A stretch of DNA of 32,000 nt from Promethearchaeum syntrophicum (lineage in GTDB: Archaea > Asgardarchaeota > Lokiarchaeia > Sigyniarchaeales > Promethearchaeaceae). The position numbers and the translations under genes were made by a program. The stretch lies in NCBI RefSeq assembly GCF_008000775.2, contig NZ_CP042905.2, positions 2,970,001 to 3,002,000 of the forward strand. The letters run 5' to 3'. Below are positions 1,130-27,082 of this stretch, piece by piece. Positions within the stretch are counted from its first letter, which is position 1. Each line of letters begins with the position of its first letter. Below the pieces are notes generated by a model, which was given only the letters and a program-made list of their open reading frames with translations, did no database searches and was not told the DNA's origin.

Positions 1130-3832
1130 ATGATAATAACTAAAGTGCAATTAATAAACATCACCACCCATAAGAATAATTTCATAAAATTTGAAGAAGG
1201 AACTAATCTTTTAATGGGACCCAATGGCACAGGAAAATCCACCGTTCTTACAATGATTGGGTATGCACTTTTTGATATGAAACTTGGAAATAATCAAAAA
1301 TCATACGTCCGTGTCCCATCATCTAAGAATAATTTTGGTACAGTAAAAATTTGGATAAGTGGCAAAGATAAACAAGAATATTGTATTGAACGCACAATTG
1401 GGAAACCTAACAATAAAATAATTGTATCTCATTCTGATACGGGTGCAATTCTAACTAAAATTTATAATAAAGCTAATTTACGGATTTGGATTCAAGATCA
1501 GATGGGATTAAGTAAAAATTTTTCACTTTCAAGTATATTCGAACACGCCATAGGTGTGAATCAAGGAACGTTTACTGCCCCATTTTTAATGAACCCTAGT
1601 GATAGGTCCAGTATTTTTGCCCCTTTACTAAATGTACATATTTATAAAAACATTTATGATAAATACAGAGAGATTAATAATTCATTCAAAGATGAAATTC
1701 AAAATTTAGAAAAAGAGATTAGCTTTATTGAAGGAGAATTAAAGGGAAAAGATCAAATCACTCAACAACAAATAGATATTAATGAAAAACTTCGAGAATT
1801 AAGGGTTTCATCTATAAGTTCGATTACAAATTTTAACCGAATAAAGAAAAAATACGATGAATTGGTACTAATAAAGGAAAAATTAGAAAAAGTAAGAAAT
1901 GATGTCGAAAGATTGGAGTATAAGAAGAAAAATTTAGAAGATATTCTTGATAAAAATGAAGTTGAAATCAATGAAGCTAAATCAGCAAAAAATATTTGCG
2001 ATGATTATAGAAATGATTATTTAGAATACAAAGAATTACTCAAAGATGAAAGAAAATTACAAGAAAAATATACCCTACTCAATAAATATATCGGAGAAAA
2101 AAATCATTATAATAAATCTTTAATAAAACTTGAAGGGAAATTAAATCAAATTTCAAATCAGATTGACAAAATCAATAAGAAAAGCGGTTTATTACCGACT
2201 TTAGAAAAGAAATTCCTCAGAAATAAGATTATTCAAAAAAAGATTCATAATCTCGTAATTCAAATTGAATCAAAAACCATTATGCAAAAAAATTTAGAAT
2301 TATTAATTCAGGATAATGCAAAACTTAAAAGAAAAATTACAAAATTGCAAAAAACATTAAAAATATTGCCTGAAATTGAAAAAAAATGTGTTCTAATAGA
2401 AACTTCTAATCAAAAAATTAATGAACTCAATCAGAAGATAGCGGTTAAAGAAGGAGAAATTAAGAAATTAAAGCAAAATAAAAAAGACTCCAAAGGAGGG
2501 AAATGTCCCTTCTTGCTTGAAAAATGTAAAAATATTGAAGGAGATTCATTGGAAGATTATTTTCAAAAGAAAATTGATGACGAACAAGATTCAATAAAGA
2601 AATTAAAAAACAATTTAAAGGGACTTATGGAAGAACTTGAAAATTTAAAGATTGAAGAAGGCAAATTAAAACAATTGGAAAGATCTCAGATAGAATTAAA
2701 ACAGCTTGAAGATCAGAGAAAAAATAATACTGTGAAAATCAACGATTTAAAGGAAAATACAAGTAATAAAGAAAAATTAGAAATTCATAAAAATAATCTC
2801 CAAGAGGAACAAAATATTCTTGAAAATGATGTAAAACAATATAATATTATCAATGAGAATATTACTAAAGATTTACCAGAGTTAAATCAAGAAAAAGCAG
2901 AAATTGAAATAGAAATTGTGAAATCAAATAAAATTTTAGAACCTTTTGAAAACCAAATTAAAGAATTAGTAGAAGTCCCCAATCTCCTTAAGGAAGTTAG
3001 GAAAAATATGAATTCAAGACAAGATAATTTTTATGCCTATAAAGAAAATGTTAAAACTATGAAGAAATTACCAAAATTTAAAGATGAACGACTCGAGATT
3101 AAATCTAAACTCCAAAAAAACATGAAGAAGCTACAAAGTAAAGAAAAAGAGAAACTTAATTTAGATAGACAATATGATGATGAACAATTTTTGAATTTAG
3201 AACAAGATAAAGAAAAAGCTAAAAACGATTCAATTGAAATACAAGCAGATATTAAAAACCAAGAAATTTTCTTATTGGATGCAATGAAAAAATTAGAAAA
3301 CTTATCCGAAAAAGAGAAAAATCTCAATCAAAAAAACCAAGATTGGAATGAATTGAAAAAAATTAGTGATTTTAGTGAAAAAATTCGCATCTGGTTTAAA
3401 GAAGCTCAACCTAAAATAACTGAAGCTCTCATGGCTCGAATTAATAATACTGCCTCTGAATTATTCAGAAAAATTACTGGTGATGAAGCCATTCAGCTAA
3501 AATGGCAAAAAGATTATGATATTCATATCATTACTGCCCATAATCCCCTTCGAACATTTTCACAGTTATCGGGCGGTGAACAAATGAGTGCTGCATTGTC
3601 TGTCCGATTAGCAGTATTAAAAGTGCTTACAAAAATTGATTTTGCGTTTTTTGATGAACCAACGACTAATCTCGACTCAGAAAAACGGAAAAATCTCTCT
3701 AGCTGTATACAAAATATACGAGGATTCAAACAACTATTCGTAATCTCACATGACGATACATTTGAAGAAAATGCGGATTTTTCTATTCATTTCTCAAAGA
3801 ATGATTATGATGAAACTGTTGTAACATCCTAA
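1130..3832 (+). CDS. rad50: Rad50 SMC-like ATPase
   Basis: N-terminal Walker A GPNGTGKST. A very long K/E/N-rich coiled-coil middle follows. The C-terminus carries signature LSGGEQMSAALSVRLAV, Walker B FAFFDEPTTNLD and H-loop FVISHD. It sits directly downstream of mre11. The mid-coil Cys pair is CPFLLEKC rather than CxxC. Confidence 0.9.
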   Translation: MIITKVQLINITTHKNNFIKFEEGTNLLMGPNGTGKSTVLTMIGYALFDMKLGNNQKSYVRVPSSKNNFGTVKIWISGKDKQEYCIERTIGKPNNKIIVSHSDTGAILTKIYNKANLRIWIQDQMGLSKNFSLSSIFEHAIGVNQGTFTAPFLMNPSDRSSIFAPLLNVHIYKNIYDKYREINNSFKDEIQNLEKEISFIEGELKGKDQITQQQIDINEKLRELRVSSISSITNFNRIKKKYDELVLIKEKLEKVRNDVERLEYKKKNLEDILDKNEVEINEAKSAKNICDDYRNDYLEYKELLKDERKLQEKYTLLNKYIGEKNHYNKSLIKLEGKLNQISNQIDKINKKSGLLPTLEKKFLRNKIIQKKIHNLVIQIESKTIMQKNLELLIQDNAKLKRKITKLQKTLKILPEIEKKCVLIETSNQKINELNQKIAVKEGEIKKLKQNKKDSKGGKCPFLLEKCKNIEGDSLEDYFQKKIDDEQDSIKKLKNNLKGLMEELENLKIEEGKLKQLERSQIELKQLEDQRKNNTVKINDLKENTSNKEKLEIHKNNLQEEQNILENDVKQYNIINENITKDLPELNQEKAEIEIEIVKSNKILEPFENQIKELVEVPNLLKEVRKNMNSRQDNFYAYKENVKTMKKLPKFKDERLEIKSKLQKNMKKLQSKEKEKLNLDRQYDDEQFLNLEQDKEKAKNDSIEIQADIKNQEIFLLDAMKKLENLSEKEKNLNQKNQDWNELKKISDFSEKIRIWFKEAQPKITEALMARINNTASELFRKITGDEAIQLKWQKDYDIHIITAHNPLRTFSQLSGGEQMSAALSVRLAVLKVLTKIDFAFFDEPTTNLDSEKRKNLSSCIQNIRGFKQLFVISHDDTFEENADFSIHFSKNDYDETVVTS

Positions 3833-3895: not shown

Positions 3896-4384
3896 ATGGA
3901 AGGTCGAGTCATTCTTCGAATTAGTGACTTCTTCAAATTTTTTTTTGTCAATCCAGGTTTGATTTTTGGATATTTGAATGATATTTTTGAGAAAAAGTAT
4001 CAATCAATGCAATATATAGAAGAGCTCGAAAATGGATTTTTATTCGTGTTCAAAGATATTGAATCTTTCAAGAAAAGAGCAAAACCCTTAATAAAAGAAG
4101 AGCTCAAAGAAATTACGAACAATGACACGAGTGCCATGAATTTTTTTCAGAAATTTTTTATTCCAAAAGAGAAATTTCCAAAAGAAGGAATTATATTGGA
4201 GATAGAGATTATATCAGGGGATAAATCAGAAATAGTTCCTTTTCTTAAGAATTTCATTTATTCCGTCAGCCAAAACATTAATATTAAGATAGATAATGAG
4301 CAGAATTTATTATTTAAAATCCTTGATTTTGATATTATTAAAAAATATGCTAATTCATTGATGAACCGATTTTATAAAACATAG
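3896..4384 (+). CDS. hypothetical protein, small soluble paralog A
   Basis: No family recognised. It shares blocks with the next ORF: RVILRIS/KIVVKIS, NGFLFVFKD/DGFLMIFQN, FFQKFF..KEGIILE/FFKKIFPKKGIILN, VPFLKNF/TPIVKNF. Confidence 0.6.
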   Translation: MEGRVILRISDFFKFFFVNPGLIFGYLNDIFEKKYQSMQYIEELENGFLFVFKDIESFKKRAKPLIKEELKEITNNDTSAMNFFQKFFIPKEKFPKEGIILEIEIISGDKSEIVPFLKNFIYSVSQNINIKIDNEQNLLFKILDFDIIKKYANSLMNRFYKT

Positions 4385-4418: not shown

Positions 4419-4916
4419 ATGGATAGGAAGATTGTTGTAAAGATCAGTTTCTCAATAGATATAATTAATAAAAGTATTGAGAAATATTCAGGTTATTTCA
4501 ACGAATTAAATAAGAAATTCAATGAAGGTGAAATTTATTTAGAATTAATTCAAGATGGATTTTTAATGATTTTTCAAAACGGTAAAGCTTTTAAAAATTA
4601 CCATACATTGCCCAAAGAAAAAATGGAGCGAGAATTAAAACAGATGGATGAAGACGACAAATCTTTTCTATTTGATAAACAGTTCTTTAAAAAAATTTTT
4701 CCCAAAAAAGGAATCATTCTTAACTCTGAGGGATATTCGGGAAATCTTCACGCATTAACTCCCATAGTCAAAAATTTTTATGAAAAAATGCATCCCGATA
4801 TTCAAGTAATTCCTAGATCGGATAAATTGGTTCAAATTCATTTAAAAAGTATAGACGCTACTTATACATTCATAAATTTTTTGTATTGGAAGATTTACAC
4901 TTTGAAAAATCAATGA
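4419..4916 (+). CDS. hypothetical protein, small soluble paralog B
   Basis: Paralog of 3896-4384. The ORF track starts at GTG 4407. ATG 4419 is preferred because it lies about 20-25 nt after the TATA-like GAATATAAAAG and aligns with the paralog's N-terminus. Confidence 0.6.
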   Translation: MDRKIVVKISFSIDIINKSIEKYSGYFNELNKKFNEGEIYLELIQDGFLMIFQNGKAFKNYHTLPKEKMERELKQMDEDDKSFLFDKQFFKKIFPKKGIILNSEGYSGNLHALTPIVKNFYEKMHPDIQVIPRSDKLVQIHLKSIDATYTFINFLYWKIYTLKNQ

Positions 4917-4965
4917 AGTTACATAATTTATTTTTTGCATATGGAATTTTTTCTTCGTACTTTCA

Positions 4966-4980
4966 AAAGTTTATATATAA
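4966..4980 (+). promoter_or_regulatory. TATA-box-like element for membrane paralog 1
   Basis: AAAGTTTATATATAA, centred about 29 nt upstream of ATG 5003. Almost the same element (AAAGTTTATAAATTA) sits at the equivalent distance before paralog 2. Confidence 0.5.
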
Positions 4981-5002
4981 TATTGCCAATAAAAATCATA
5001 GA

Positions 5003-5809
5003 ATGAATAAAAATCTTCAACCATCTTCCATTCGTAAATATTCCATCCGATCGGATTATAAACTGAGTTTTACTTTAATTTTCCAAAATTTCCTTCCTAT
5101 TTTTATTGTTTTGGCAATAGGAGTTGTTCTTAACGAGGTTTTGGATTATTTATTTCTAGATGTGCTCTTTCCCGAACTCCCTTTCAATCAATATGGACTT
5201 CCTCCCGGATTATTATATTTCCTAAGTAATCTTCCGGGTGATGCGATTTTTTATGGGTTTTTCGGGGTGTGCATGGGACTTTGTTCGGAGATTATGTCTT
5301 CTGGAGATCAATTTACCCAGGTAAAGAGATTTCCATACTATCTTAAAAAATTCTGGCTCAAATTTTTTGCACTAGGCTTAGTCATCAATTTCCCATTCTA
5401 TTTGGCATATTTTATCAGAGCATCGTGGGTAAATCCCGTGTTATTCATTACACTTTGGGCGTTATCACATTTTGTGTATTACTTTTTAGTGGAAATTAAT
5501 CCGGCTCTCATTACCAGGTCAAAATTTCGAGAGGCAATTAAAGATAATATTTTTCTTCTTAAATCCCAATTTTTAAGAATTCTGATAACATTTGGAATAA
5601 TAACTTTAGTGTTTTCAAGTCCCCTAATAATTTTGAGATCTTTGGAACAATTTGGGTCATTTTCAGATGCAGATATTGAGATTCTTCATTTTCTCCACCG
5701 CTTATTTAATTATATCAAAATTTTTATCGGGAATCCGCTTAACGCGTTTCTTTCCATTGGTATTTATAATGAAAATATTGTCTTCCCAACTCTCCAAAGT
5801 AAAAAATGA
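5003..5809 (+). CDS. polytopic membrane protein, tandem paralog 1 (unknown family)
   Basis: Multiple hydrophobic segments. Roughly 70% identical by eye to 5948-6763. Start moved from 4886 to ATG 5003, which aligns with the paralog N-terminus and lies about 29 nt after AAAGTTTATATATAA. Confidence 0.75.
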   Translation: MNKNLQPSSIRKYSIRSDYKLSFTLIFQNFLPIFIVLAIGVVLNEVLDYLFLDVLFPELPFNQYGLPPGLLYFLSNLPGDAIFYGFFGVCMGLCSEIMSSGDQFTQVKRFPYYLKKFWLKFFALGLVINFPFYLAYFIRASWVNPVLFITLWALSHFVYYFLVEINPALITRSKFREAIKDNIFLLKSQFLRILITFGIITLVFSSPLIILRSLEQFGSFSDADIEILHFLHRLFNYIKIFIGNPLNAFLSIGIYNENIVFPTLQSKK

Positions 5810-5947: not shown

Positions 5948-6763
5948 ATGAAAGCAAATCACGAATTATCATCGACCCGTAAATATCCAATTGTATCTGA
6001 TTATAAACTGAGTTTTACTTTAATTTTCCAAAATTTTATCCCAATTTTTATTGTTTTGGCAATAGGGGTTGTATTAATGGAGATTTTAGATTACTTTTTA
6101 TTAGATGTACTATTCCATGAACTCAATCTCGTACAAAATACTTGGTTACACCAAATTATCTATGTCTTATGTAAACTACCAGGGGATGCAATTTTTTATG
6201 GATTTTTCGGAGTGTGTATGGGATTATGTTCGGATATAATGACTTCGGGTGACGAATTTACACAGATAACGAGATTTCCATATTATCTTAGAAAATATTG
6301 GCTTAAATTTGTTTTACTCTGCTTGTTAATCAATTTCCCTTTCTACCTTTCTTATTTTATTCCACAACCGTGGTTTAATCTTGGTATATTCATATTTCTT
6401 TGGATTCTCGCTCATTTTATTTATTATTTCTTGGTGGAAATTAATCCAGGTCTTATTCAAAGGTCAAAAGTTCTCGAGGCTATCAAAGACAATATTATTC
6501 TCCTTAAATCCCAATTTATTCGAATTTTGATAACATTTGGAATAATTTCTATAGTGTTCTCTGGTCCACTTTTAATAATGAGATCTTTGATACTATTTGG
6601 GGGAAAATCACCAGAAGAAATTAGGCAACTTGAACTTTTCCATCGCATATATACTTATATCAAAATTTTTATCGGACATCCGCTTAACGCATTTCTTTCT
6701 ATTGGTATTTACAATGAAAATATTGTCTTCCCATTACTCCAAAATAAAGAAAAATTAAACTAA
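5948..6763 (+). CDS. polytopic membrane protein, tandem paralog 2 (unknown family)
   Basis: Shares YKLSFTLIFQNF(L/I)PIFIVLAIGVVL, LPGDAIFYGFFGVCMGLCS, YYFLVEINP and IKIFIG.PLNAFLSIGIYNENIVFP with the upstream gene. AAAGTTTATAAATTA lies about 30 nt before the ATG. Confidence 0.75.
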   Translation: MKANHELSSTRKYPIVSDYKLSFTLIFQNFIPIFIVLAIGVVLMEILDYFLLDVLFHELNLVQNTWLHQIIYVLCKLPGDAIFYGFFGVCMGLCSDIMTSGDEFTQITRFPYYLRKYWLKFVLLCLLINFPFYLSYFIPQPWFNLGIFIFLWILAHFIYYFLVEINPGLIQRSKVLEAIKDNIILLKSQFIRILITFGIISIVFSGPLLIMRSLILFGGKSPEEIRQLELFHRIYTYIKIFIGHPLNAFLSIGIYNENIVFPLLQNKEKLN

Positions 6764-7321: not shown

Positions 7322-8131
7322 ATGAAAATAACAAAAAAAATAGTTTTGACATACTCAATTCTACTAATATTTTTTAGTACCACACCAACTGTTAAATTAG
7401 TAAACGCTCAAGAATCCTCTGAAACAACATACAAAGCATTATTTTTAGTCTCAAATGCATATGGAGATAATTATTACGACCTGGTTGGGAATTTTTCTCA
7501 ATGGGGGTGGGAAATAGAGACTGCGGGAAGCAGCAACGTTGTTAAAGGGTGTGTCAATCATCACTTAGCCTATACACTGAATTGTAATCTTACCTTTAAT
7601 GATTTGAATGAATCTAAGATTCAAGAGTATGATTGTCTAATTATTCCAAGCGGAGGTCATTGGTATTCGCTTGTGGCTTTAGATTCTGTAGAATTAATAG
7701 TTAGAACCGCTCATGAAAGCGATTTAATCATAGGAACACTATGTATAGGACAGAAAGTCCTTTCCGATATCGATGGTTTAATGGATGGAGTAAAAGTTGC
7801 CTATTTCAATATGGTAGAATCAGATATGGAAAGAGAAAACGCCCGAATAGTCCATCGAGATGTTGTAACTGATGATGGGTTTGTCACTGGTGGCGGAGGA
7901 GGGAGTTTATCGGGAGGAGGTTATACTGTCGCACCCACAGCCGAATTTTGCGAAGCAGTGAAAGCCGCTTTGGAACCTAATAATAATAAACTAATCTATT
8001 CGTTAACAGGGTCGATTGGGGGAGTTTTGTTACTATCAATTGGAATATTAGTTGTAAAAAACCGACATAAAATTTTTTCAAAAACACATAAAAAAACTCA
8101 ACAAGTTAAAGAAAAAAGAAGTGAAATATAA
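7322..8131 (+). CDS. secreted, C-terminally anchored DJ-1/PfpI-like (class I glutamine-amidotransferase-like) protein
   Basis: Start moved from TTG 7292 to ATG 7322, which gives signal peptide MKITKKIVLTYSILLIFFSTTPTVKLVNAQE. DCLIIPSGG ... DLIIGTLCIGQKVL resembles the DJ-1/PfpI nucleophile-elbow region, with Cys present and the following His absent. There is a Gly-rich linker GGGGGSLSGGG and a C-terminal TM helix followed by a basic tail. Confidence 0.45.
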   Translation: MKITKKIVLTYSILLIFFSTTPTVKLVNAQESSETTYKALFLVSNAYGDNYYDLVGNFSQWGWEIETAGSSNVVKGCVNHHLAYTLNCNLTFNDLNESKIQEYDCLIIPSGGHWYSLVALDSVELIVRTAHESDLIIGTLCIGQKVLSDIDGLMDGVKVAYFNMVESDMERENARIVHRDVVTDDGFVTGGGGGSLSGGGYTVAPTAEFCEAVKAALEPNNNKLIYSLTGSIGGVLLLSIGILVVKNRHKIFSKTHKKTQQVKEKRSEI

Positions 8132-15155: not shown

Positions 15156-17408
15156 TTATTGAAAATACCATGAAATTTCTTGGATCTTTTCTTCAATTTT
15201 TTCCCTTTCGATATCTGATAATATATTCGATTGAGGAGTTTGTATGTTAGAAGCAATTATTCTTCCAAACTTATCTTTCCAAATTAGATCTCCAGTTATT
15301 TTTTTTCTACTAAAAAATTTCTTAGAGAATTTGAGAAATGAATCTTTCAGAAAAATGAATAATAATTTAGAAGCATTTTGATAAGGTCCTAAATCTTCTC
15401 TTCCAATTATTTTAAAAAAATCTTGATCTACTTGATTCTTTTCAAATAATGATTTGAATATTTTCTGTATTAAATCTATTCGAAATTCTGCTATATTTTT
15501 ACTATTTAGAACACTTTTTAGAATTAAAGATAAAATATCTTTTTCATTGGAAGAAAATTTTTTGAATAATCCTTCAATAGTTCGTTTTTCTGCTTCGTAT
15601 ATATTTCTACAATAATCACGTGTAGAGACATTCAATCTTTTGGTACTTTTACCCAATTTAATTTGATAATCTGAATACATTTTTTCGGATAATCCCATTT
15701 TACCCATAATCGCCAGTTTTTCTAAATTACTTTTTAAGACATAGCTACCATAGATAAATTTCATTGAGTCACATTTCTTAATTGCAATATCAATTTCTCC
15801 TGAAGATATATAACCATATTTTGTAAAATCTGAGATTATCTGCCATGGGAGCACATTGGAAATTATTGGAACGCCTTTTTTAATTAAGAAAACAACTTGA
15901 TCGGGAGTTAAAATAGTTTTTGGTTGAGCTTTTTTTGTCCAATTCGGTTTATCAATTAATTTTGGATTACATAGAGTATAATCAAAAGGTTGGATAAATG
16001 AAATAATGGGGGAAGTTGGATCTATAATAATTCTTGCACCATCAGTAAATGATTGAAGGAATTCTTCGTGTAATTTATTAACATTAACATCCCATTGAAT
16101 AATTATTGAATTTTTTGAAAGACCAAAATTAGGTTGCCTCTTTCTTTGATGCTCAATCCAATTAGGAATAATTTCATCCCCTTTAAGCCAATTAAAAAAT
16201 TTCCGGTGTAAATTTATTTCTTCATTCATAATATATTCTCTATTACTGGTTTTAATATGTTGAATTACATAATTTAAGGTAGGATATCTCTCCAATAAAG
16301 TTGTAGATATAAATGAGAAATCTCTCTGGTTGTAATAGCTTGAATATCCTTCTTTAACAAAATAAATTGGTCTTTCTCCAGCAGATTTCATAATATAGAT
16401 TAGAAAGTCATCTGCCATATCGTAAGCAGGAAGGAAATATGCTTTCGTGTTAGTTTTAGAGGAAATCCACTTTTTTATATATATAATTGATGTCCCTGAA
16501 ATCTCCAATTTATCATAAATTAGATAGTATCTCTTCTTTAATAATTGAGGAGATATATTCCAAGATTTGTTCAAATTTGTTAAATTTTCCTGATTCCCAT
16601 TAAAAAGCAACTCTAGAGTTATTTTTGCATCACAAATTTCCTCATTCGAGATGTTTTTCGGCTTTTTAAAACTTTCAAAATGAAAAATATAATTTAGTTT
16701 GTTTGCGATTTTATTCAAAATATAAGCATTCTCAAGCTTATTAATCATCCCTAAGTTCCAGAAATTTTGAATAAAAATCTCTAAAATATCATGGAATTTC
16801 TGATAAAAAAAATCAAACATTGCCTCAATGAATAACTTTTCTTCTTCTTTAGAATCTTTTAAGAGTTCAAAATATGAATCAATTTTATATAAAATTAGAT
16901 CTGAACTTAATATATTTAAATCATCTTCTAAGGATTTTACGAGAGTTTTTACTTGTGTGGTATATGATTCTTTTTTTAAAAGATATCTACATAATATCTT
17001 TATTCTCTCATTAAAAGGAATTTCTATTTTATTGATTTTATCGCCAACTTGAACGAGTGAAATTTCCTTAATTTTTTCAAGATAGGATGAGAGATTGGAT
17101 GTTTTAATTAATTTCAATTGTGATTTTTGATTTGATATATTTTTTACTTGTTCATCAGATAGCATTAGAAGTAATTTTCCCAAATGCTTACACCAATCAA
17201 AAGACCGGTTAAGAAAATCAGGACAATAATGTGCCACATATTTTTCCTGCAAGTTAATAATGGCAGTGTAAGGATTTTGCGCACTCCCTTGGATAATACA
17301 ATATGTAATCAAAGGAATTTCTTGAATAATTGCAAATTCAAGTACATTCTTATCAGAAATCGACCTAGCTCTAGATAACCGTGAAGATGAAACTAAATTT
17401 TGTATCAT
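15156..17408 (-). CDS. SWIM-type zinc-finger protein, 750 aa, third gene of the MoxR-vWA operon
   Basis: N-terminus RLSRARSISDKNVLEF...CIIQGSAQNPYTAIINL...AHYCPDFLNRSFDWCKHLGKLLL has SWIM-like ligands H60-x-C62...C73-x-H75. The remaining ~670 aa match no family I recognise. The start lies 4 nt after the vWA gene stop. Confidence 0.6.
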   Translation of the reverse strand: MIQNLVSSSRLSRARSISDKNVLEFAIIQEIPLITYCIIQGSAQNPYTAIINLQEKYVAHYCPDFLNRSFDWCKHLGKLLLMLSDEQVKNISNQKSQLKLIKTSNLSSYLEKIKEISLVQVGDKINKIEIPFNERIKILCRYLLKKESYTTQVKTLVKSLEDDLNILSSDLILYKIDSYFELLKDSKEEEKLFIEAMFDFFYQKFHDILEIFIQNFWNLGMINKLENAYILNKIANKLNYIFHFESFKKPKNISNEEICDAKITLELLFNGNQENLTNLNKSWNISPQLLKKRYYLIYDKLEISGTSIIYIKKWISSKTNTKAYFLPAYDMADDFLIYIMKSAGERPIYFVKEGYSSYYNQRDFSFISTTLLERYPTLNYVIQHIKTSNREYIMNEEINLHRKFFNWLKGDEIIPNWIEHQRKRQPNFGLSKNSIIIQWDVNVNKLHEEFLQSFTDGARIIIDPTSPIISFIQPFDYTLCNPKLIDKPNWTKKAQPKTILTPDQVVFLIKKGVPIISNVLPWQIISDFTKYGYISSGEIDIAIKKCDSMKFIYGSYVLKSNLEKLAIMGKMGLSEKMYSDYQIKLGKSTKRLNVSTRDYCRNIYEAEKRTIEGLFKKFSSNEKDILSLILKSVLNSKNIAEFRIDLIQKIFKSLFEKNQVDQDFFKIIGREDLGPYQNASKLLFIFLKDSFLKFSKKFFSRKKITGDLIWKDKFGRIIASNIQTPQSNILSDIEREKIEEKIQEISWYFQ

Positions 17409-17412
17409 ATTA

Positions 17413-19989
17413 CTAAACCCTCGATATAATATTACTTACAATTTTAGGAAAGTTTTTCCAATTATCAACAGGAATTAATTGAGCATTTATAGATTCGACT
17501 ATTTGCTGAATATTACCCATTCCATACATAGTTTTAGGGACAATTAAGATGCTTGTAGCATTTTCATTCACGATATTTTCTAAATGTTTTTTTGATCTTT
17601 GAAAATCTCCTAAATAGGCATCTGTAACTAATATAAACATTTTATCTTGACTTTTTGATAGTTTAAATTGATTTTCGGCCCATTCAACAGCAGATTGCAT
17701 TTGAGTTCCACCACGAGCGTGTAAATCGAGTATTTCATCAACAATTTCATCCAAAACAATATCTTCATTAATTTCACATAAAATATGAGAAGAACTTTCA
17801 AACAAAGCAACCCCCAATTCATCCCTCGCAAAAACCATTAAAAGCATAACAGTTACAATGGAAGCACTAGCCAATGGAGCTCCAGTCATTGAACCACTGA
17901 TATCTAAAAGAAAAATAACACATCTTCTTCCAGAAATCTCTTCTCTTACAATAAAATCATCCAATTTTACATCTTCGATTTTTTTTCCAGAACTTAGCAA
18001 GTTATCTATAGTTTCATCTATATCTATAGCCCAAGGATCATCACCAAGAAAAAATGGTCGAGTTGTGCCTTCTGGCAAGATTCCAGCTTCAGAAGATCCG
18101 ATTAGAAGAGCTGCTTTTGTCTTAGCTAAATCAATAATAATTTCCTTGGCGCGATCTTTAACAGTTTGTCTAAGCCATTTTGGTAATTTATGTCCATGTT
18201 TAAACCATTGATTGAGAAAATTCTCCCCTCCTCCAGCGCCAATAGCTTTTCTAAAAAGATCTTCCTCTTCGGGAGTATGGCGAATGATTTTTGATACTTG
18301 ACTTAAATCCCGCATTGCTAAAGCGCCCAATGCACCTACACTCTTTTTTTTAATAGACATACTGATTAAGGTTTGTGATTGGGATTGAGTTAACGAATTT
18401 TTTCTTAGTATACTGTTTACACGTTCAAAACTGGGATTCTCAGTAGAAATCATATTTTTAAGATATTCAAATACGTCTCCAAGTAATTTAGCAATTTCTG
18501 CTTTATCCATTCCTAAACTATCCCCTTTCTCAAAAATTTTTGATATTTCAAGATCATAATTGTTTTCTTGCGCAAATTCAATAGATTTTGCTAAATCATC
18601 TGGAGTTTGAGAAGTTTCGATCATATTTTTTATTTCTTCTTGGTTAAAATTTCTAAAAGTTTGATTTAAATGAGAATTTCCAACTTTCTTCTTAATATTT
18701 TCTAATTTTTCAAATAGGTCATTGTGATCACCCCAATTTAAATTCTTATCAGCTAAATAATTTGAAACTTTATTTCTGAATAAATCAAGCCATTCAGCAT
18801 TTGATATTGGGTTGTCAATTACTTCATTCAAAGGTGTTTTTTTAAAATCTTTAGAATATTTATTATAAATTCGATTGGAGAGATTTGAATTGAAAATATC
18901 ATCTAAATCTTTAGCTTTCTGCAATAAATCAAGTGGAGAATTATATTCATGAGAGTTTTCAATAAATGAATCTAATTGATCATAATTTAACGTATCTTTA
19001 AATAAATTAGGAGAAAAAAGAATATCTTCTAAATTTGTTGCCTCTTCTTTAAATCTATTTTCAGCATAATTTATCATACTATCCAAACGTGGGGCATGAT
19101 CTGATATCGAGATATTATTTTGGTTTAAAATATTTTTGAAATTATTAAAAATTTCTAAAGAATTTTGTAATTCTCTTGATGATAATTCATCTATTATTTT
19201 GGAAGATTTAGAAGATATCTCATGTTTATGATTTTTTAAAGAGTCTTCTAACATTTCTGCTAAATTTTGAATATTTTTTTCACGGCTCAAGTTCTTTACT
19301 TCAGATGTTAACGAAAGAATGTGACTTCTAACAAGGTCCTCATTATCTATAAAGGGGACTTTTTGAAGCATCAGCTTTTTTGCAAAATCCATTATTCCAC
19401 CCCAATTATCAAGTTTATTTTGTCTAAGACCTTGACTACCACCAATTGTATCATAAGCAATTCGTTTCTTTAAAATGTCTAAACTTTCATTGTTTGTGAG
19501 TGAGATATAATCTTGAGGATCAGATGCAAAAATTTCATTTTCTATTTGCTCTACAAAACGAAGGCTTTCCAACCCTTTACTTGAATCTACAGACCTTTGC
19601 AATGTTAGAAAACTTAAAATCTCATTTAAAATATCTTGTGCGCCAGTTAAATGTTTAGGAACAGTTTTAGAAGTAATCAAACTTGAATCTACAGTATCTC
19701 CTTGAAATAAATCCCTTTCATCACCGAGAAGGATTCTTATCGCAATAATTTCTGCAAATTTTTGAGCTTCTGGAGGGCTTGTGATGATTGCAAGTGTGAT
19801 TAAATCATTAGTATCTAGTGAAGATTTTGTGCGCAAGATCTTACATATTCCCATAGCGCATATAGCTTGGGATTGCCTTGAACTAAAAATACTTTTTTTT
19901 ATACCTGGAGATTCATTTATGCTTTCTCTAGCGACATTTATAAATTCAGATGCAAATTCAACTAATTCAAAGTGTCCCATTAAAATCAC
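17413..19989 (-). CDS. 858-aa protein: ~680-aa helical region plus C-terminal von Willebrand factor A domain
   Basis: The C-terminal vWA has a complete MIDAS: VIFLLDISGSMTG (DxSxS, D696 at 17902-17904), ARGGTQM (Thr) and ILVTDAY (Asp). The preceding PFFLGDDPWAIDIDETIDNLL...DDFIVREE resembles CoxE/YehP-type vWA leaders. The N-terminal ~680 aa are helical and N/K/E/L-rich, and I recognised no family. Confidence 0.75.
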   Translation of the reverse strand: MILMGHFELVEFASEFINVARESINESPGIKKSIFSSRQSQAICAMGICKILRTKSSLDTNDLITLAIITSPPEAQKFAEIIAIRILLGDERDLFQGDTVDSSLITSKTVPKHLTGAQDILNEILSFLTLQRSVDSSKGLESLRFVEQIENEIFASDPQDYISLTNNESLDILKKRIAYDTIGGSQGLRQNKLDNWGGIMDFAKKLMLQKVPFIDNEDLVRSHILSLTSEVKNLSREKNIQNLAEMLEDSLKNHKHEISSKSSKIIDELSSRELQNSLEIFNNFKNILNQNNISISDHAPRLDSMINYAENRFKEEATNLEDILFSPNLFKDTLNYDQLDSFIENSHEYNSPLDLLQKAKDLDDIFNSNLSNRIYNKYSKDFKKTPLNEVIDNPISNAEWLDLFRNKVSNYLADKNLNWGDHNDLFEKLENIKKKVGNSHLNQTFRNFNQEEIKNMIETSQTPDDLAKSIEFAQENNYDLEISKIFEKGDSLGMDKAEIAKLLGDVFEYLKNMISTENPSFERVNSILRKNSLTQSQSQTLISMSIKKKSVGALGALAMRDLSQVSKIIRHTPEEEDLFRKAIGAGGGENFLNQWFKHGHKLPKWLRQTVKDRAKEIIIDLAKTKAALLIGSSEAGILPEGTTRPFFLGDDPWAIDIDETIDNLLSSGKKIEDVKLDDFIVREEISGRRCVIFLLDISGSMTGAPLASASIVTVMLLMVFARDELGVALFESSSHILCEINEDIVLDEIVDEILDLHARGGTQMQSAVEWAENQFKLSKSQDKMFILVTDAYLGDFQRSKKHLENIVNENATSILIVPKTMYGMGNIQQIVESINAQLIPVDNWKNFPKIVSNIISRV

Positions 19990-20001
19990 ATTCGTAATTT
20001 A

Positions 20002-20973
20002 TTATTTTACAACTGTATTGATGATTTTCTTAACAATTTGTTCAGATTGGAATCCGGGTCGTGGTTTTAACCCTCCAATCAGCACAAGACCCGCAATTTT
20101 CTTAAATTCATTTATATCTAATTTCTTTTTAAGTTGTTTTTTTGCAGCTAGTTTTGTAATTGCTATAGCAGAACGAATTGAAGCAGGTCTTTCAATTTCT
20201 CGGCTCTTTCGTGTAGCATCGATTAAATTGTAGGTGAGATCTATATAATCTTTTGATAATTTAGTTTGAGGAATATTTGCATGAATAATTTCCATTTCAA
20301 CTGAACGTGAAGGATAATCTAATTTAATCCAAATTTTTATTCGATCTTTAAGAGCTTCTGATAAACGATGAGTTCCCGCCATATCTCCTGGATTAGCAGC
20401 ACACATTAAAAAAAAATCATCATGAGCTCTAATCCTACCTAATCGTGGTAACATAATACTTCGTTCTTCTAGAGGTTCCAAAAATGTATTTTGGGTGTAT
20501 TCTGTAGCGCGGTTTAATTCGTTTGCCAGAAATATTCCACCTGTTACCATCATTTCTGTCAAAGAACCTGGTAAAAATGATTCTTTAATGAAACCTCTTT
20601 TTAATGTTTCTCCAGGATCAAAAGCACCTACAAAATGACCAGGTTTTGTCGATTCATCTAATGTCATCCATTCAAAATTCTTCTTACGTGAAGAAGCAAA
20701 GGATCTTGCAAGAAGTGTTTTACCAGTTCCAGGAGGACCAATTAAAATTGGTGTTAATTGACATGCTTCAGCATCTTCTAATAATTCAAATGCTTGTTTA
20801 TACTGCCCTTTTTTTACTAATTCAATATCTGGTGTGTTGTCAAAAACAAAGGATTTCTCCATCAATTCGTAAAAATCACTTTTTTTTACTTTTTGATTTT
20901 CTTTACTAATTTTACTTGTAGTTTTCTTACTAATTTTCTTTGTAACTTTACTTTTTGTTTTTTTTGGAGGCAT
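20002..20973 (-). CDS. MoxR-like AAA+ ATPase with lysine-rich N-terminal tail
   Basis: Walker A LIGPPGTGKT. The Walker B region GGIFLANELNRATEYTQNTFLEPLEERS corresponds to the MoxR hhhDEINRA...LLEAMEE pattern but has Asn where the Asp is expected. CAANPGDMAGTHRLSEALKDRI is the MoxR sensor/Arg region. N-terminus MPPKKTKSKVTKKISKKTTSKISK. The stop lies 12 nt before the vWA gene start. Confidence 0.8.
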   Translation of the reverse strand: MPPKKTKSKVTKKISKKTTSKISKENQKVKKSDFYELMEKSFVFDNTPDIELVKKGQYKQAFELLEDAEACQLTPILIGPPGTGKTLLARSFASSRKKNFEWMTLDESTKPGHFVGAFDPGETLKRGFIKESFLPGSLTEMMVTGGIFLANELNRATEYTQNTFLEPLEERSIMLPRLGRIRAHDDFFLMCAANPGDMAGTHRLSEALKDRIKIWIKLDYPSRSVEMEIIHANIPQTKLSKDYIDLTYNLIDATRKSREIERPASIRSAIAITKLAAKKQLKKKLDINEFKKIAGLVLIGGLKPRPGFQSEQIVKKIINTVVK

Positions 20974-22007: not shown

Positions 22008-22745
22008 ATGGATGCACAAAGAATTAGAGTTTTAGTAAAAAATAATATAATAAAACTTATCAGAACACCAGCTAATTTGTTCATGAACATTTTATTTCCA
22101 GCAGTCCTGACATTAGTATTTGGGATATCTTTTAACGATCCAGAAACGGGAATGACCATAAGTTTCACTACACCAGGACTTATATCTTATGCCATAATAT
22201 TCATTATTATGACTGTCGCCATGAGTTTTACAGAAGACAGGGAATCAGGCATACTTAAGAGAATCAACACAACTCAAACGACTTCAAGCGAATTTATGGG
22301 CTCACACATAATTAGCAACATGATTACTAGCTTTATTCAAGTAATAATTGTTGTGGGACTTGCACTTCTAATTGGATTTAGACCTACAGGAAATTTATGG
22401 AGTTATGTCTTAGTATTTATTATCATTGGTCTATTTGCTTTGATTGCTGTAGGATTGGGATTAATTGTAGCTACAATTGCTAAAAGTCCCGGAGCTGCAT
22501 CTGGGATTTCATTTATATTTATTCTACCAATGATGTTCTTTGGAACCTTCATGCCATTAAACTCCACAACTGAAATTATTGCAAAGTTTATGCCAAGTGC
22601 ATATGCCACTAATGCTTTAGAGGTTCTCTTTACGGGAGATAATTTAAATCCTGTAGTATTATCCGGAATTTTATTTTTGTCAATAACTAGCATTATTATA
22701 GTACTAATTGGTGTGTTGTTATTCAATAAATTAGGAAATAAATAA
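22008..22745 (+). CDS. ABC-2 type transporter permease
   Basis: Six hydrophobic segments and 245 aa. The start lies 1 nt after the ATPase stop, preceded by GGAGGG. Confidence 0.75.
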   Translation: MDAQRIRVLVKNNIIKLIRTPANLFMNILFPAVLTLVFGISFNDPETGMTISFTTPGLISYAIIFIIMTVAMSFTEDRESGILKRINTTQTTSSEFMGSHIISNMITSFIQVIIVVGLALLIGFRPTGNLWSYVLVFIIIGLFALIAVGLGLIVATIAKSPGAASGISFIFILPMMFFGTFMPLNSTTEIIAKFMPSAYATNALEVLFTGDNLNPVVLSGILFLSITSIIIVLIGVLLFNKLGNK

Positions 22746-22827: not shown

Positions 22828-24345
22828 CTATTTTTTCTCTGCGTGTAAGTGATTCAGCTCATTAAAAGGAAAATTGAATTTCTTGAACGTTTCAGCAAAA
22901 TTAGAATAATTCTCGATGGATTTTTTTATTTCATTATATCCTCTAAATGAAGATAAATAGGAAGTAATTTCTTCGCCATGTATTATATCTGGGAGAAGAA
23001 ATTCTGAATGTATTGAAAATTTCTCTTCCCTTTCTTCTTTCGTACTTGGTACAACTATTGGAGAATTTTCTATATCTAAGTTGATTCTTTGAAATCCATT
23101 TTCTGATGCTCTGATTCCATAAATAAAATTATATTTTAGTTTAATATTGGGAAAATGTTCATTGAATTGATTCCATAATACATCCAAGCACCCATAACAA
23201 GGATTCTTCTCAGATAGAATAAATAATTCACCTCTTATTTCTGTTTTATCATTATGTTCTAAAAGTCCTAATTGATGTACAAAATTATTTAGAATTTTAA
23301 ATTCACTATGTTGACTATTAGTTTTTTTGTAATTTATTTTATCATCTTTGGGATGTAAAACTGTTTTGGGTATAAAAAATGGGGTTAATTCCTTTTCAAA
23401 ATGGATCGAAGATAACTCTGGGATATTTTTTTCGTCCATCGATTTTATGACTTTTTCAGGAACATTTCCTTTTTTATCTGTTTCAATATATTTTTCTGTT
23501 AGTTCTAGTTGAAATCTTGAATTGGAACTTTCAACATTCTTTCCATCAAAAATAACCATCGGACCTTTATCATTAAAAGAAATGATATATCCTTCTATCT
23601 CTTCTTGGTTGCCAATTTTGATTTTGTATATACCAAAGGCAAGATGTAATGTACTCCCTCTCATTCCCGTTTGTTTATTCCTCATTTGAGGAATTGTTTG
23701 TTTCCAATTCAGTACATTAACTTTATTAGATTTACTTCGATACAATTTTATTTCTTCATTCTTAATTTTATTGATGACTTGATATCCTTGATACCTAGAA
23801 ATGCTAGAACTAATTGATATATTTTCTATATTGAAAAAATCCTTTAGTTGGCCATCTTTATGAACGAGATCTTTGGGCATCGGTTTTGGATCATAAATAT
23901 GGATAATACATTTCGAGTTGAAATAGTTTGTCAAGTCTTTCGTATTATAATTCGTAGCTTTGCCTGTATAAAAGCAGCCAATTAACTTCAGCGAAACTCG
24001 GTCGTAAATATCAATTTTAATCATGGTACCAGGAGCTAAGTTAAATCTTTTGCGGCGTTGTTGTGCATTGAAGAACCTAAATAGATTATCCGGAAACTTT
24101 TTCCTCGCATTTTTCCGAATTTCACGAACCGTCTTTCTTGTGATTTGGATACATTTTTTTGGCTCAATCCCAGGAAATTTCGTGAAGTAGAATCCTTCGT
24201 TAAAAGAATATACTTCTGCTTTTTGACATGCGGATTTACTTAAATATTTGAAAAATTGTTCTTTTTCATCAATTAAGGGATTTCTTAGCAGAGCTATTCT
24301 GTTTTTATCGTGAATTTTTACCCAAGATTCTTCAAAGTTTGTCAT
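22828..24345 (-). CDS. orphan 505-aa protein with a C-terminal-half nucleotide/nucleic-acid deaminase-like signature
   Basis: H346-S-E348 (codon H346 at 23308-23310), then a helix-like FKILNNFVHQLG, then a strand-like GELFILSEKN, then P382-C-Y-G-C386 (C386 at 23188-23190). This gives HxE-x33-PCxxC with the expected secondary-structure context. The N-terminal ~330 aa match no family I recognise. Confidence 0.5.
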   Translation of the reverse strand: MTNFEESWVKIHDKNRIALLRNPLIDEKEQFFKYLSKSACQKAEVYSFNEGFYFTKFPGIEPKKCIQITRKTVREIRKNARKKFPDNLFRFFNAQQRRKRFNLAPGTMIKIDIYDRVSLKLIGCFYTGKATNYNTKDLTNYFNSKCIIHIYDPKPMPKDLVHKDGQLKDFFNIENISISSSISRYQGYQVINKIKNEEIKLYRSKSNKVNVLNWKQTIPQMRNKQTGMRGSTLHLAFGIYKIKIGNQEEIEGYIISFNDKGPMVIFDGKNVESSNSRFQLELTEKYIETDKKGNVPEKVIKSMDEKNIPELSSIHFEKELTPFFIPKTVLHPKDDKINYKKTNSQHSEFKILNNFVHQLGLLEHNDKTEIRGELFILSEKNPCYGCLDVLWNQFNEHFPNIKLKYNFIYGIRASENGFQRINLDIENSPIVVPSTKEEREEKFSIHSEFLLPDIIHGEEITSYLSSFRGYNEIKKSIENYSNFAETFKKFNFPFNELNHLHAEKK

Positions 24346-24564
24346 TAATTTCTATTCCAATAAGGACTAAAGGTTTTTTACAAAATGTAAAACCCATTGC
24401 TAAATGAATTCGTAGATTATTAAAGAATTTTTGGACAGTAATATGCATGAAATTTGGACTATGAGGGTGAGAAGGCTGTTCTTCTTCTCGTTCATTTCCA
24501 TTTTCCAATTACAACCTTAATCACTTTAACGAATAATTTAACGAGTTAAACGATTCTACCCAAT

Positions 24565-24578
24565 GAAAAGTCAGATTT
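24565..24578. repeat. direct repeat copy 1 (GAAAAGTCAGATTT)
   Basis: Exact 14-mer repeated 70 nt downstream. About 19 of 23 positions match when the alignment is extended. Confidence 0.7.
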
Positions 24579-24634: not shown

Positions 24635-24648
24635 GAAAAGTCAGATTT
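24635..24648. repeat. direct repeat copy 2 (GAAAAGTCAGATTT)
   Basis: Exact copy of 24565-24578. The 70-nt offset is not a multiple of 3, so any signal is at the nucleotide level. Confidence 0.7.
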
Positions 24649-24862: not shown

Positions 24863-25225
24863 ATGGGATTTAAAATAAAACATCTTTTTATCATAAATAT
24901 TATCACATCCTTACTTTTTGGATTAGGATTTCTATTTATGACTGAAATACAGAACACTATGCTTGGTATTGAAGATAATCTTTTAGGATTTAAGTATTTT
25001 GGCCTTGCCCTTATTGGTAATGCCATTTTGTTATTCTTCTCAATAAATTCAGAGGATAATCCTGCTAGGAAAGCGATTTTAATTTATAATTCCTTTGGCG
25101 CTTCCCTTCTAGTAATATTGATGTTCGTAACTTTAGATTTAACGATTATAATGGTTTGGGTTTCTATAATTCTTCAAACTGTATTATGTTGCCTACATGC
25201 ATATTTCCTCTTCAAAAAAGAGTAA
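24863..25225 (+). CDS. small membrane protein (about 4 TM), unknown family
   Basis: Four hydrophobic segments. The TATA-like CATATAAATTA (24837-24847) lies about 20 nt before the ATG. Confidence 0.55.
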   Translation: MGFKIKHLFIINIITSLLFGLGFLFMTEIQNTMLGIEDNLLGFKYFGLALIGNAILLFFSINSEDNPARKAILIYNSFGASLLVILMFVTLDLTIIMVWVSIILQTVLCCLHAYFLFKKE

Positions 25226-26690: not shown

Positions 26691-26830
26691 ACATATATAG
26701 CAACCAATAAGCTATTAAATTCTTATTCCACAATTTTTCTTAATTGACGCTAACTTAATATTGAGAAGGTAGGTTAATAATCTTTAAATTAGGAGTTTAA
26801 TCATTTGAAGCCCATATAATGAAGAAAAGA

Positions 26831-26902
26831 TGCGTTCACCGGGAATTGAACCCGGGTCCCCGGGTTGGAAACCCGAGATGCTAACCTCTACACAATGAAC
26901 GC
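26831..26902 (-). tRNA. tRNA-Gly (anticodon UCC)
   Basis: The reverse complement folds as a 72-nt cloverleaf. The acceptor stem GCGUUCA/UGAACGC is perfectly paired. The D arm is GUGU/GCAU. The anticodon stem UCGGG/CCCGG carries loop UUUCCAA, giving anticodon UCC. The T arm CCGGG/CCCGG has loop UUCAAUU. The discriminator is A. No CCA is encoded and there is no intron. It forms a GC-rich island in AT-rich DNA. Confidence 0.9.
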
Positions 26903-27082
26903 AAATGAAGAATTAGTAATTTCTAAAAATTAATTCTATGAAATTTTCGATTAATTAAAAAATTTATGTTATGTTTACTACGGATTTTAATCAAGACAGT
27001 GGTTTTTATATAATCGGAACAATTCGCTACGATCACAATTTATTTATAATTCTTTAAACAACTGAATATCAAATTCAGAAAA

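Follow-up and report, generated by a model that had tools for sequence, protein, structure and literature searches.

The editing and mutator deaminases of eukaryotes (AID/APOBEC, DYW) have been proposed to descend from toxin-type nucleic-acid deaminases, which also serve as raw material for base editors (DddA, SsdA, Sdd/Ddd); DddA is a double-stranded DNA (dsDNA) cytosine deaminase toxin that is delivered by a type VI secretion system and has DddI as its immunity protein. To our knowledge, every toxin-type deaminase clade described to date is bacterial, and transfers to eukaryotes have been sporadic. One of them, the BURPS668_1122 clade (Pfam PF14424), has been recorded in bacteria and Perkinsus only, and archaea have rarely acquired deaminases (PMC3239186; Iyer, Zhang, Rogozin & Aravind 2011). 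A DxE motif is typical of this clade, many of its members are truncated after helix-3, and an insert before helix-2 is a feature of the BURPS668_1122/SCP1.201/YwqJ group (PMC3239186). Members of the PF14424 clade deaminate cytidines of single-stranded DNA (ssDNA) in cytosine base editor (CBE) reporters (bioRxiv 10.1101/2023.05.21.541555), the related toxin clades BaDTF1-3 are DNA mutators (PMC7901873), archaea seldom have immunity families or classical polymorphic toxins (PMC3482391), and a 2026 commentary counts the deaminase systems of Asgard archaea among the open questions (PMC13327615). Here, we analyzed a stretch of 32,000 nucleotides (the window) of the lokiarchaeial organism Promethearchaeum syntrophicum MK-D1 (contig NZ_CP042905.2, forward-strand positions 2,970,001 to 3,002,000), with a focus on the gene at 22828-24345 on the minus strand, which codes for a stand-alone deaminase-domain protein of 505 amino acids. 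We lean towards regarding this protein as a domesticated cytoplasmic polynucleotide cytosine deaminase, accessory in nature and possibly directed against mobile elements.

The coding sequence is complete in the list of open reading frames (ORFs), with an ATG start, and its product was 100% identical to the protein P0001, which is named 'deaminase domain-containing protein [Promethearchaeum syntrophicum]' in GenBank. A first-pass annotation, made from the nucleotide letters, had proposed an HxE-x33-PCxxC deaminase signature in this ORF. The signature is real, with HSE at residues 346-348 (23302-23310) and PCYGC, the sole CxxC of a protein with six cysteines, at residues 382-386 (23188-23202). 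When the protein was shuffled 200,000 times, a pattern of the type [HC]xE-x15-60-PCx2-4C was present in 191 of the shuffles (~1e-3), so that a chance origin of the motif is unlikely, and the Pfam match makes chance irrelevant. PF14424 (Toxin-deaminase, BURPS668_1122 family) matched residues 333-404 over profile positions 74-141 of 146 with 33.2 bits against a gathering cut-off of 29.6, and the curated cut-off was exceeded in 13/13 family members, with a best E of 8e-9. When the alignment of the lokiarchaeial (Loki) family was compared with 27 bacterial toxin-deaminase domains by hhalign, the probability was 99.1% and the E value 1e-18. An exhaustive HMMER search with the family profile returned ~40 proteins, the C-terminal ends of which match profile positions ~319-391, and the matches tested were PF14424 domains, including those of a 2319-residue RHS/FG-GAP/SpvB toxin and of an Iodobacter haemagglutinin-repeat protein fragment. 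H346, E348, K350, P382, C383 and C386 are invariant in 13/13 sequences, which settles in the affirmative the conservation of HSE and PCYGC that had been named as a check. Furthermore, in the secondary structure predicted from an AlphaFold2 (AF2) model (helices 347-358 and 384-397; strands 370-378, 401-409, 411-414 and 417-420), HSE and PCYGC open the two helices, with strand 370-378 between them. The Pfam and hhalign matches, the invariant catalytic residues and the secondary structure thus bear out the proposed membership in the cytidine deaminase superfamily, with APOBEC3 structures as top, non-significant Foldseek matches of the model pointing the same way, whereas TadA and APOBEC, which had been chosen for comparison, give way to the BURPS668_1122 toxin clade as the specific family. 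By their place in the motif, H346, C383 and C386 are the putative zinc ligands and E348 is the putative proton shuttle. The detection of the domain is itself not new, as Pfam and GenBank already recognize it, and one ortholog carries the label 'putative deaminase of polymorphic toxin system' from the Joint Genome Institute (JGI). Weak secondary Pfam matches to APOBEC1, SNAD4 and NAD1 were seen in some orthologs. The protein had no match in an NCBIfam scan or among the PHROG and PADLOC-DB v2 models, and PDB sequence searches with the protein and the family profile returned nothing relevant.

The catalytic core, delimited by PF14424, hhalign and the invariant residues, occupies residues 331-420 (23086-23355; this and the following segments all lie on the minus strand) and comprises helix-2, strand-3, helix-3 and strands 4-5. 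It is preceded by a probable insert before helix-2 (residues 276-330, 23356-23520), which is indel-rich in the family alignment (A1) and gapped against the bacterial domains in hhalign, where residues 276-322 form an insertion and the confidence is low upstream of residue 323. Ahead of the insert lies an invariant beta-hairpin block, YKIKIGNQEE-EGY-IS-NDKGP-V-FDGK-VESS (residues 234-275, 23521-23646), which is the most conserved segment of the protein (0.88) and probably represents strands 1-2 of the fold; strands are predicted at 234-244 and 250-258 in the AF2 model, and the block aligns, with low confidence, with the 'GN..aeG.I' strand-1/strand-2 region of the bacterial PF14424 domains. The conserved basic region in the middle of the protein (residues 156-233, 23647-23880; isoelectric point (pI) 10.1; mean majority fraction 0.79 in A1) may serve as a linker or may belong to the deaminase domain as its N-terminal helix region, and the hhalign match to the N-terminal part of the toxin domains begins, with low confidence, at residue 174. 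From the strand-1/2-like block and the insert before helix-2, the deaminase domain probably spans about 175/234-420, not 335-420. The start at about residue 335 given in the first-pass annotation should therefore probably be moved to nearer 175-234, as judged by the low-confidence hhalign stretch, while its conversion of residues 335-420 into 23086-23343 was correct. The core is followed by a conserved acidic tail (residues 421-505, 22831-23085; pI 5.3), which is absent from the bacterial toxin domains, had no homolog outside the family in the exhaustive HMMER search and contains N427, P429, V432, P433, T435, R439, F443, H446, S447, L450, L451, I460, Y463, L464 and F467 as invariant residues.

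Likeness to the BURPS668_1122 clade covers the core from helix-2 to strand-4 and includes the xE[FY]K[IM]LN helix with a lysine two residues past the catalytic glutamate, the SE+xPC end of strand-3 and the CxxC helix that is followed by QF...FPN[IV]. Bacterial PF14424 domains read R..DxE[YF]K[IM]L[NE]...PCxSC..VI..QF...FPN, of which the Loki protein keeps EFKILNN...PCYGCLDVLWNQFNEHFPNI. There are, however, clear differences. The first ligand is Asp in 38 of the 39 motif-bearing bacterial hits (DxE) and Cys in one (CxE), whereas it is His (HSE) in the Loki family; with respect to the RxxDxExK signature, E348 and K350 are invariant, the ligand is H, not D, and N343 takes the Arg position. The helix-3 serine (bacterial PCxSC; 'CxxCxS' in PMC3239186) is absent, the Loki family having PC[YH]GC-L-D without Ser at either position. 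In bacterial toxin members, the domain is at the C-terminus, with mostly 22-32 residues after CxxC (three outliers, 51-70), whereas 119 residues follow it in the Loki protein, in which the domain is internal and has the 85-residue conserved tail after it. From these sequence features, the Loki fold appears to be more complete than most bacterial toxin versions, with strands 4-5 and the conserved tail present. The Loki case also differs from the clade in its archaeal host, in having neither delivery domains nor an Imm2, Imm3 or SUKH gene, and in its new N-terminal module (N-module).

Three other known systems invite comparison. The SCP1.201 clade or BaDTF1 (e.g. DddA of Burkholderia cenocepacia), a sister of BURPS668_1122 (PMC3239186), has the insert before helix-2 that is probably also present in the Loki protein, and a [HD]xEx[KQ] helix-2 signature, in which His is allowed and to which the Loki H-S-E-F-K conforms exactly; nevertheless, the Loki protein has no PF14428 match, the family profile matched no DddA sequence in the PDB at E up to 10, and the Asn that ends strand-3 is not conserved among the Loki proteins, as MK-D1 has N and most others have T. 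The AID/APOBEC cytosine deaminases of vertebrates, which mutate ssDNA, act as restriction factors and have been proposed to come from bacterial toxin deaminases (PMC3239186), are alike in mode and not in membership, being stand-alone intracellular HxE...PCxxC deaminases without an immunity partner; they differ in the division of the superfamily (helix-4 versus C-terminal hairpin), and the antiviral role is that of the vertebrate enzymes. CDAT8 of Methanopyrus kandleri is the one well-known archaeal acquisition of a bacterial deaminase, which has an accessory THUMP domain and converts C8 to U8 in tRNA (PMC3239186). It comes, however, from the dCMP-deaminase clade and not from a toxin clade, and the N-module is unrelated to it in sequence; the tRNA-Gly of the window has a normal U8.

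The ~330 residues ahead of the signature had been described as free of recognizable motifs; they contain a discrete module of ~135 residues that is common to other proteins. This N-module (residues 20-155, 23881-24288, minus strand) is basic, with a pI of 9.9, and carries the motif NP..E...YFTKFP..P..F....FF.....R.LFNLP....IYD..SLK.I......L..Y...S..IIHIYDP. The basic patch RKNARKKF...QQRRKRF, also pointed out earlier, is present at residues 77-101, and its QQRRKRF part is near-invariant across the family. Positions 1-150 of the family profile matched deaminase-free proteins in the exhaustive HMMER search, namely P0016 (283 residues, E 2e-16), P0017 (1559 residues, positions 795-930, E 2e-11), P0018 (1124 residues, positions 688-820, E 5e-10) and P0056 (202 residues). 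In the alignment of the module (A2), P58, F92, R98, F101, L103, L119, H149, Y151 and D152 (numbered as in the deaminase protein) are invariant across architectures. A separate AF2 model of the module reached a predicted local distance difference test (pLDDT) score of 73 and a predicted template modeling (pTM) score of 0.66, with the order strand-strand-long helix-two short helices-strand-strand-helix-strand. Foldseek returned no significant match to this model (best E 0.82 in PDB and 0.07 in BFVD), the module matched nothing in Pfam, NCBIfam, PHROG, PADLOC or the PDB sequences, and a search with A2 in a set of 5.8 billion proteins returned four proteins only. A degenerate second deaminase domain as in APOBEC3G was considered for the module and was rejected at an hhalign probability of 0.2%. 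On this sequence evidence, the N-module is previously undescribed, portable and separate from the deaminase domain.

P0017 and P0018 are homologous over most of their length. Their N-terminal parts are matched by the ORF that lies upstream of P0016, so that P0016 represents the latter half of a gene of this kind that has been split. In P0017 and P0018, a hydrophobic segment read from the sequence stands ahead of the module, and the C-terminal end reads CRYC...HHIWP...WNLV.C..H; the C-terminal region excised from P0017 matched Pfam HNH (PF01844) with 22.4 bits against a cut-off of 21.4, whereas the full-length giant proteins had no Pfam match. PADLOC models did not match P0016, P0017 or P0018, and a comparison of P0017 and P0018 with viral contigs gave no match. 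The N-module may act as a portable adaptor for nucleic-acid-attacking effectors, since it is also carried by these giant HNH-nuclease proteins. The giant family (1100-1560 residues, from metagenomes) was seen at L004 4590-9269 (P0017), in P0018 and at L005 2-2952 (the split gene including P0016), and its layout consists of a conserved N-terminal region, one hydrophobic segment, the N-module and the C-terminal HNH nuclease. The neighbors of P0017 in L004 are a leucine-rich repeat (LRR) protein, proteins of unknown kind and a winged helix-turn-helix (wHTH) protein, for which a weak CARF-like match was obtained.

The deaminase protein had been called an orphan, which it is not: 12 further full-length relatives with 52-76% identity, all from Lokiarchaeia, were found in Candidatus Lokiarchaeum ossiferum, in metagenome-assembled genomes (MAGs) labelled 'Promethearchaeota archaeon' and in metagenomes. 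A profile search of the 5.8-billion-protein set with A1 returned the same 13 proteins. When one genome per GTDB species was scanned, only two loci were found, that of L. ossiferum and a 1.4-kb contig binned as Methanococcoides. The latter (L006; JAIORJ010000197.1, 1445 bp), from a MAG labelled Methanococcoides sp., codes for a copy that is 93% identical at the protein level, and its label is most likely a binning error. A1 had no match among the IMG/VR viral contigs, and nothing was found with the alignment A6 among metagenome contigs. The deaminase family is restricted to Lokiarchaeia.

We compared the surroundings of the gene at six loci, one in the window, one in L. ossiferum and four on contigs from metagenomes or MAGs. 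Different genes flank it at 6/6 loci, with no neighbor in common. The downstream gene is convergent at four of the six and co-directional at two, and the two co-directional genes, a beta-lactamase-family gene 89 nucleotides away and a PPDK-like gene 310 nucleotides away, are mutually unrelated. Thus, neither a conserved downstream gene nor an operon partner was found at the six loci, and hence there is no immunity candidate, which extends to all of them the earlier remark that no immunity gene lies downstream. Imm-family matches were found neither in the protein nor in its neighbors; RHS, PAAR, HINT and filamentous-haemagglutinin domains were absent from the protein at Pfam E values up to 10; and no transposase, integrase or terminal repeats flank the gene. 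The protein has a maximum 19-residue Kyte-Doolittle mean of 0.76, and neither a signal peptide nor a transmembrane (TM) segment was found.

Upstream of the gene, a conserved region (24346-24476, minus strand) contains a promoter-like block CAAAAATTCTTTAATAATCTACGAATTCATTTAGCAATGGG at 24393-24433, within which a TATA-like element TTTAATAAT lies at 24416-24424, as well as GCCTTCTCAC at 24467-24476 and a leader. Similarity by blastn reaches 90-185 nucleotides upstream of the ATG between genera. The block CAAAAATTCTTTAATAATCTACGAATTCATTTAGCAATGGG is common to MK-D1, L. ossiferum, P0005 and P0013 (alignment A4), even though the P0013 protein is only ~53% identical, whereas P0003 and P0007 retain CAAAAAATTCTTTAATAA only, ~35 nucleotides ahead of their ATG, ~110 nucleotides of the leader having been lost. 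By its likeness to the archaeal consensus of the B recognition element (BRE) and TATA box, the block is probably a BRE/TATA promoter with a leader that is dispensable in some lineages. The equivalent stretches lie at ~9860-10000 in L001, ~7817-8000 in L008 and ~6730-6820 in L009, and the block is conserved better than many synonymous sites of the coding sequence. Residues 1-18 of the MK-D1 protein (24292-24345, minus strand) correspond to the untranslated 5' leader of other lineages; for P0005 (L008 ~7985-8010), the equivalent ATG opens a mini-ORF of seven codons (ATG AGG AAA TTT GAA GAA GAT TAG), and the real start is downstream. A structured leader RNA was also considered and was rejected, as RNAalifold gave -0.06 kcal/mol with three pairs and no covariation, and Rfam matched only a tRNA.

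With respect to evolution, the reading frame is intact in seven sequences, and the Nei-Gojobori ratio of nonsynonymous to synonymous divergence (dN/dS) was 0.25-0.5 in 21/21 pairs (seven sequences), values that are inflated because extreme AT bias compresses dS; this indicates purifying selection that is weaker than usual for core genes. Between the loci L003 and L010, a block of 1756 nucleotides, consisting of the gene with ~56 nucleotides upstream and ~210 nucleotides downstream, is 92% identical with a dS of 0.13, whereas the sole other shared gene is 76.5% identical with a dS of 0.69. The GC content at third codon positions (GC3) of the deaminase gene is under the mean of its neighbors at 3/6 loci and equals the host value in MK-D1, L. 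ossiferum and L009. The low dS of the L003/L010 pair, the GC3 values and the variable contexts suggest that the gene has been exchanged among Loki lineages. The other gene shared by L003 (15863-19066) and L010 (8440-11508) codes for a protein of ~1070 residues without a Pfam match, and its amino-acid identity of 65% contrasts with 90% for the deaminase pair. In L010, the deaminase gene is followed immediately by the PPDK-like gene, past which a stretch at 6559-6733 repeats part of the 3' end of the deaminase gene (91% identity; compared with L003 11319-11526). This additional, partial copy looks like the scar of an insertion or recombination at the 3' end of the gene. AcCoA-hydrolase genes near the deaminase gene in MK-D1 and L. 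ossiferum were tried as a control for divergence and were discarded, since they are not orthologs (33% identity over a fragment).

We propose that an ancestor of Lokiarchaeia may have captured and domesticated the catalytic domain of the BURPS668_1122 (PF14424) clade of bacterial polymorphic toxins. The protein would then be a cytoplasmic zinc-dependent deaminase, and its substrate would most likely be cytosine in a polynucleotide (ssDNA or RNA), because members of the PF14424 clade deaminate ssDNA cytidines in base-editor assays. Judging from the context, the N-module and the basic middle region (pI ~10) may target or regulate the enzyme, which would act within its own cell without an immunity partner as the product of an accessory gene, most likely in an APOBEC-like restriction or mutagenesis of invading genetic elements. 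The gene would carry its promoter and leader along and may pass between Loki lineages, and autoinhibition by the N-module or the acidic tail can be speculated on as a means of self-protection. Several observations weigh against this proposal. The substrate is extrapolated from distant relatives, with ~40 bits over ~70 residues; profile positions 1-73 of PF14424 are unmatched, and the assignment of strands 1-2 depends on a low-confidence hhalign stretch. The full-length AF2 model is poor (pLDDT 52.5, and <50 in the middle region 156-233), and its top Foldseek matches in the PDB, although almost all to APOBEC3A/B/G over ~178 columns, are non-significant (best E 0.066, probability 0.92). There is no tie to defence islands, the PADLOC search being empty; the composition of the gene in MK-D1 is indistinguishable from that of the host; and the evidence for horizontal exchange comes from one comparator gene, which is possibly fast-evolving or a paralog. 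The single-copy conservation over the whole length would be compatible with a housekeeping editing role as well. In addition, a DNA deaminase free of an inhibitor should be self-mutagenic, and therefore some control mechanism must exist. A more specific form of the proposal, which we put forward only tentatively, is that the protein serves as an APOBEC-like deaminase of innate immunity, that is, a captured warhead that was released from its immunity protein and came to be controlled by a new module for sensing or targeting, one that also arms the giant HNH proteins. If this is true, Asgard archaea would have modular nucleic-acid-attacking effectors of their own, as an independent parallel to the toxin-to-mutator route proposed for AID/APOBEC.

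Among the alternatives, a lineage-specific or housekeeping RNA editor, which would convert C to U in tRNA, rRNA or mRNA with its basic N-terminal half binding RNA (cf. Methanopyrus CDAT8 and plant DYW), is unlikely. Every genome that has the gene has it in single copy and conserved over its whole length, in ordinary chromosomal surroundings among metabolic genes; the N-module and the middle region are strongly basic (pI ~10); and there is an archaeal precedent for recruiting a bacterial deaminase to tRNA editing, with toxin-clade deaminases having become RNA editors in eukaryotes (PMC3239186). Such a role is, however, at odds with the narrow distribution (a subset of Lokiarchaeia, two loci among the GTDB species representatives), with a dN/dS that is high for a core RNA-modification enzyme, the AT bias being a caveat to this comparison, and with the occurrence of the N-module on HNH-nuclease giants, which is not a housekeeping association. 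The one tRNA of the window, a single data point, has a normal U8, and the PF14424-clade members tested so far act on ssDNA (bioRxiv 10.1101/2023.05.21.541555). The first-pass annotation had left editing, nucleotide-pool depletion and a toxin-like function side by side, and it is the secreted toxin that is now disfavored. We regard a classical exported toxin against competing cells as very improbable, even though bacterial PF14424 members cap CdiA, RHS and SpvB toxins C-terminally, the JGI label of the ortholog refers to a polymorphic toxin system, and the giant membrane-anchored, HNH-ended proteins that carry the N-module bear a loose likeness to polymorphic toxin architecture. The protein lacks a signal peptide and TM segments as well as domains of the delivery, repeat or processing type; the conserved tail keeps its deaminase domain away from the extreme C-terminus; no conserved downstream gene, and so no immunity candidate, accompanies it at the six loci; and the domain is not polymorphic, being the same in all orthologs. 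The rarity of immunity families and polymorphic toxins in archaea (PMC3482391) points in the same direction.

The two remaining alternatives concern the substrate and the beneficiary of the gene. Nucleotide-depleting deaminases exist as single-gene defences, and nothing in the sequence directly specifies a polynucleotide substrate, both of which speak for a deaminase of free nucleotides or bases that depletes dCTP or dCMP, as bacterial anti-phage dCTP deaminases do, or that serves pyrimidine salvage. The activity of the superfamily on free nucleotides and bases is also the ancestral one (PMC3239186). Nevertheless, there was no match to dCMP_cyt_deam, CDA or dCTP-deaminase models at E up to 10 and none in PADLOC, the closest relatives are all toxin-type nucleic-acid deaminases, and the secondary Pfam matches are to APOBEC1, SNAD4 and NAD1 and not to metabolic deaminases, which makes this explanation improbable. 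We attach similarly little probability to a selfish or mutator gene that spreads horizontally with its own promoter and is kept by mutagenic or addictive effects instead of a benefit to the host. The dS of 0.13 versus 0.69 between L003 and L010, with the high-identity block confined to the gene and short flanks, the six differing contexts, the GC3 below that of the neighbors at three loci, the conservation of the promoter with the gene and the moderately high dN/dS would all suit such a gene. On the other side, it has no flanking transposase, integrase or terminal repeats and is absent from the IMG/VR viral contigs, amelioration of its composition is complete in MK-D1 and L. ossiferum, and larger-scale synteny around the gene is kept between L003 and L010, where one comparator gene only was available.

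What is new here is the N-module, the architecture, the lokiarchaeial host and the His ligand combined with an untruncated fold, and no paper on Asgard toxin-type deaminases was found in a literature search that was incomplete. Should the domesticated cytoplasmic deaminase that we favor be confirmed, the closest cultured relatives of eukaryotes would have turned a toxin-type deaminase into an immunity-free intracellular protein, a route of domestication for which MK-D1 and L. ossiferum, both of them in culture, allow direct tests. With its His ligand and complete fold in a clade that otherwise relies on Asp and is frequently truncated, the protein could also give a compact and less toxic base-editor scaffold, and the fact that the N-module is partnered with a deaminase in one case and an HNH nuclease in the other suggests that it has a part in conflict biology.

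In the window itself, the deaminase gene is monocistronic according to the ORF list, as had been stated: downstream, a convergent ABC-2 permease gene ends at 22745, 82 nucleotides from the 3' end of the deaminase gene, and upstream, a divergent gene for a small membrane protein lies at 24863, across an intergenic gap of 517 nucleotides. This gap had been called repeat-bearing, which is correct in a minor sense only; the 14-mer AAATCTGACTTTTC was found by a repeat search in its far upstream part as two exact copies 70 nucleotides apart (24565-24578 and 24635-24648, minus strand), which are its only matches in 32 kb against 0.07 expected and are not conserved at the other loci. The GC content is 29-33% throughout the window, with a uniform composition. 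A tRNA-Gly(TCC) lies at 26829-26903, 2.5 kb from the deaminase gene, and was the sole match of the Rfam scan; the tRNA and the small membrane genes are near the gene as described before, but they are incidental, because the neighborhood is unconserved at the five other loci. A tRNA-adjacent integration island was considered and rejected, since there is no integrase, the composition is uniform and the tRNA is not linked to the deaminase gene in other genomes.

Farther away on the plus strand, 1130-3832 codes for a 900-residue protein with an N-terminal AAA_23 (Rad50/SMC-like) ATPase domain, and the ORFs around it, at 159-1118, 3896-4384, 4886-5809 and 5948-6763, are each without a family match. 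A functional link of the deaminase with the MoxR-VWA genes (17413-20973) or with the ABC transporter was rejected, as strand switches lie between them and these genes are absent at 5/5 other loci. The MoxR genes belong to a three-gene block on the minus strand (15156-20973), in which a 750-residue protein without a family match (15156-17408) and an 858-residue protein with a C-terminal VWA domain (17413-19989) accompany a MoxR-type AAA ATPase with a Lys-rich N-terminal extension (20002-20973), and this ATPase weakly matched the bpMoxR model of MoxR-vWA-beta-propeller ternary systems.

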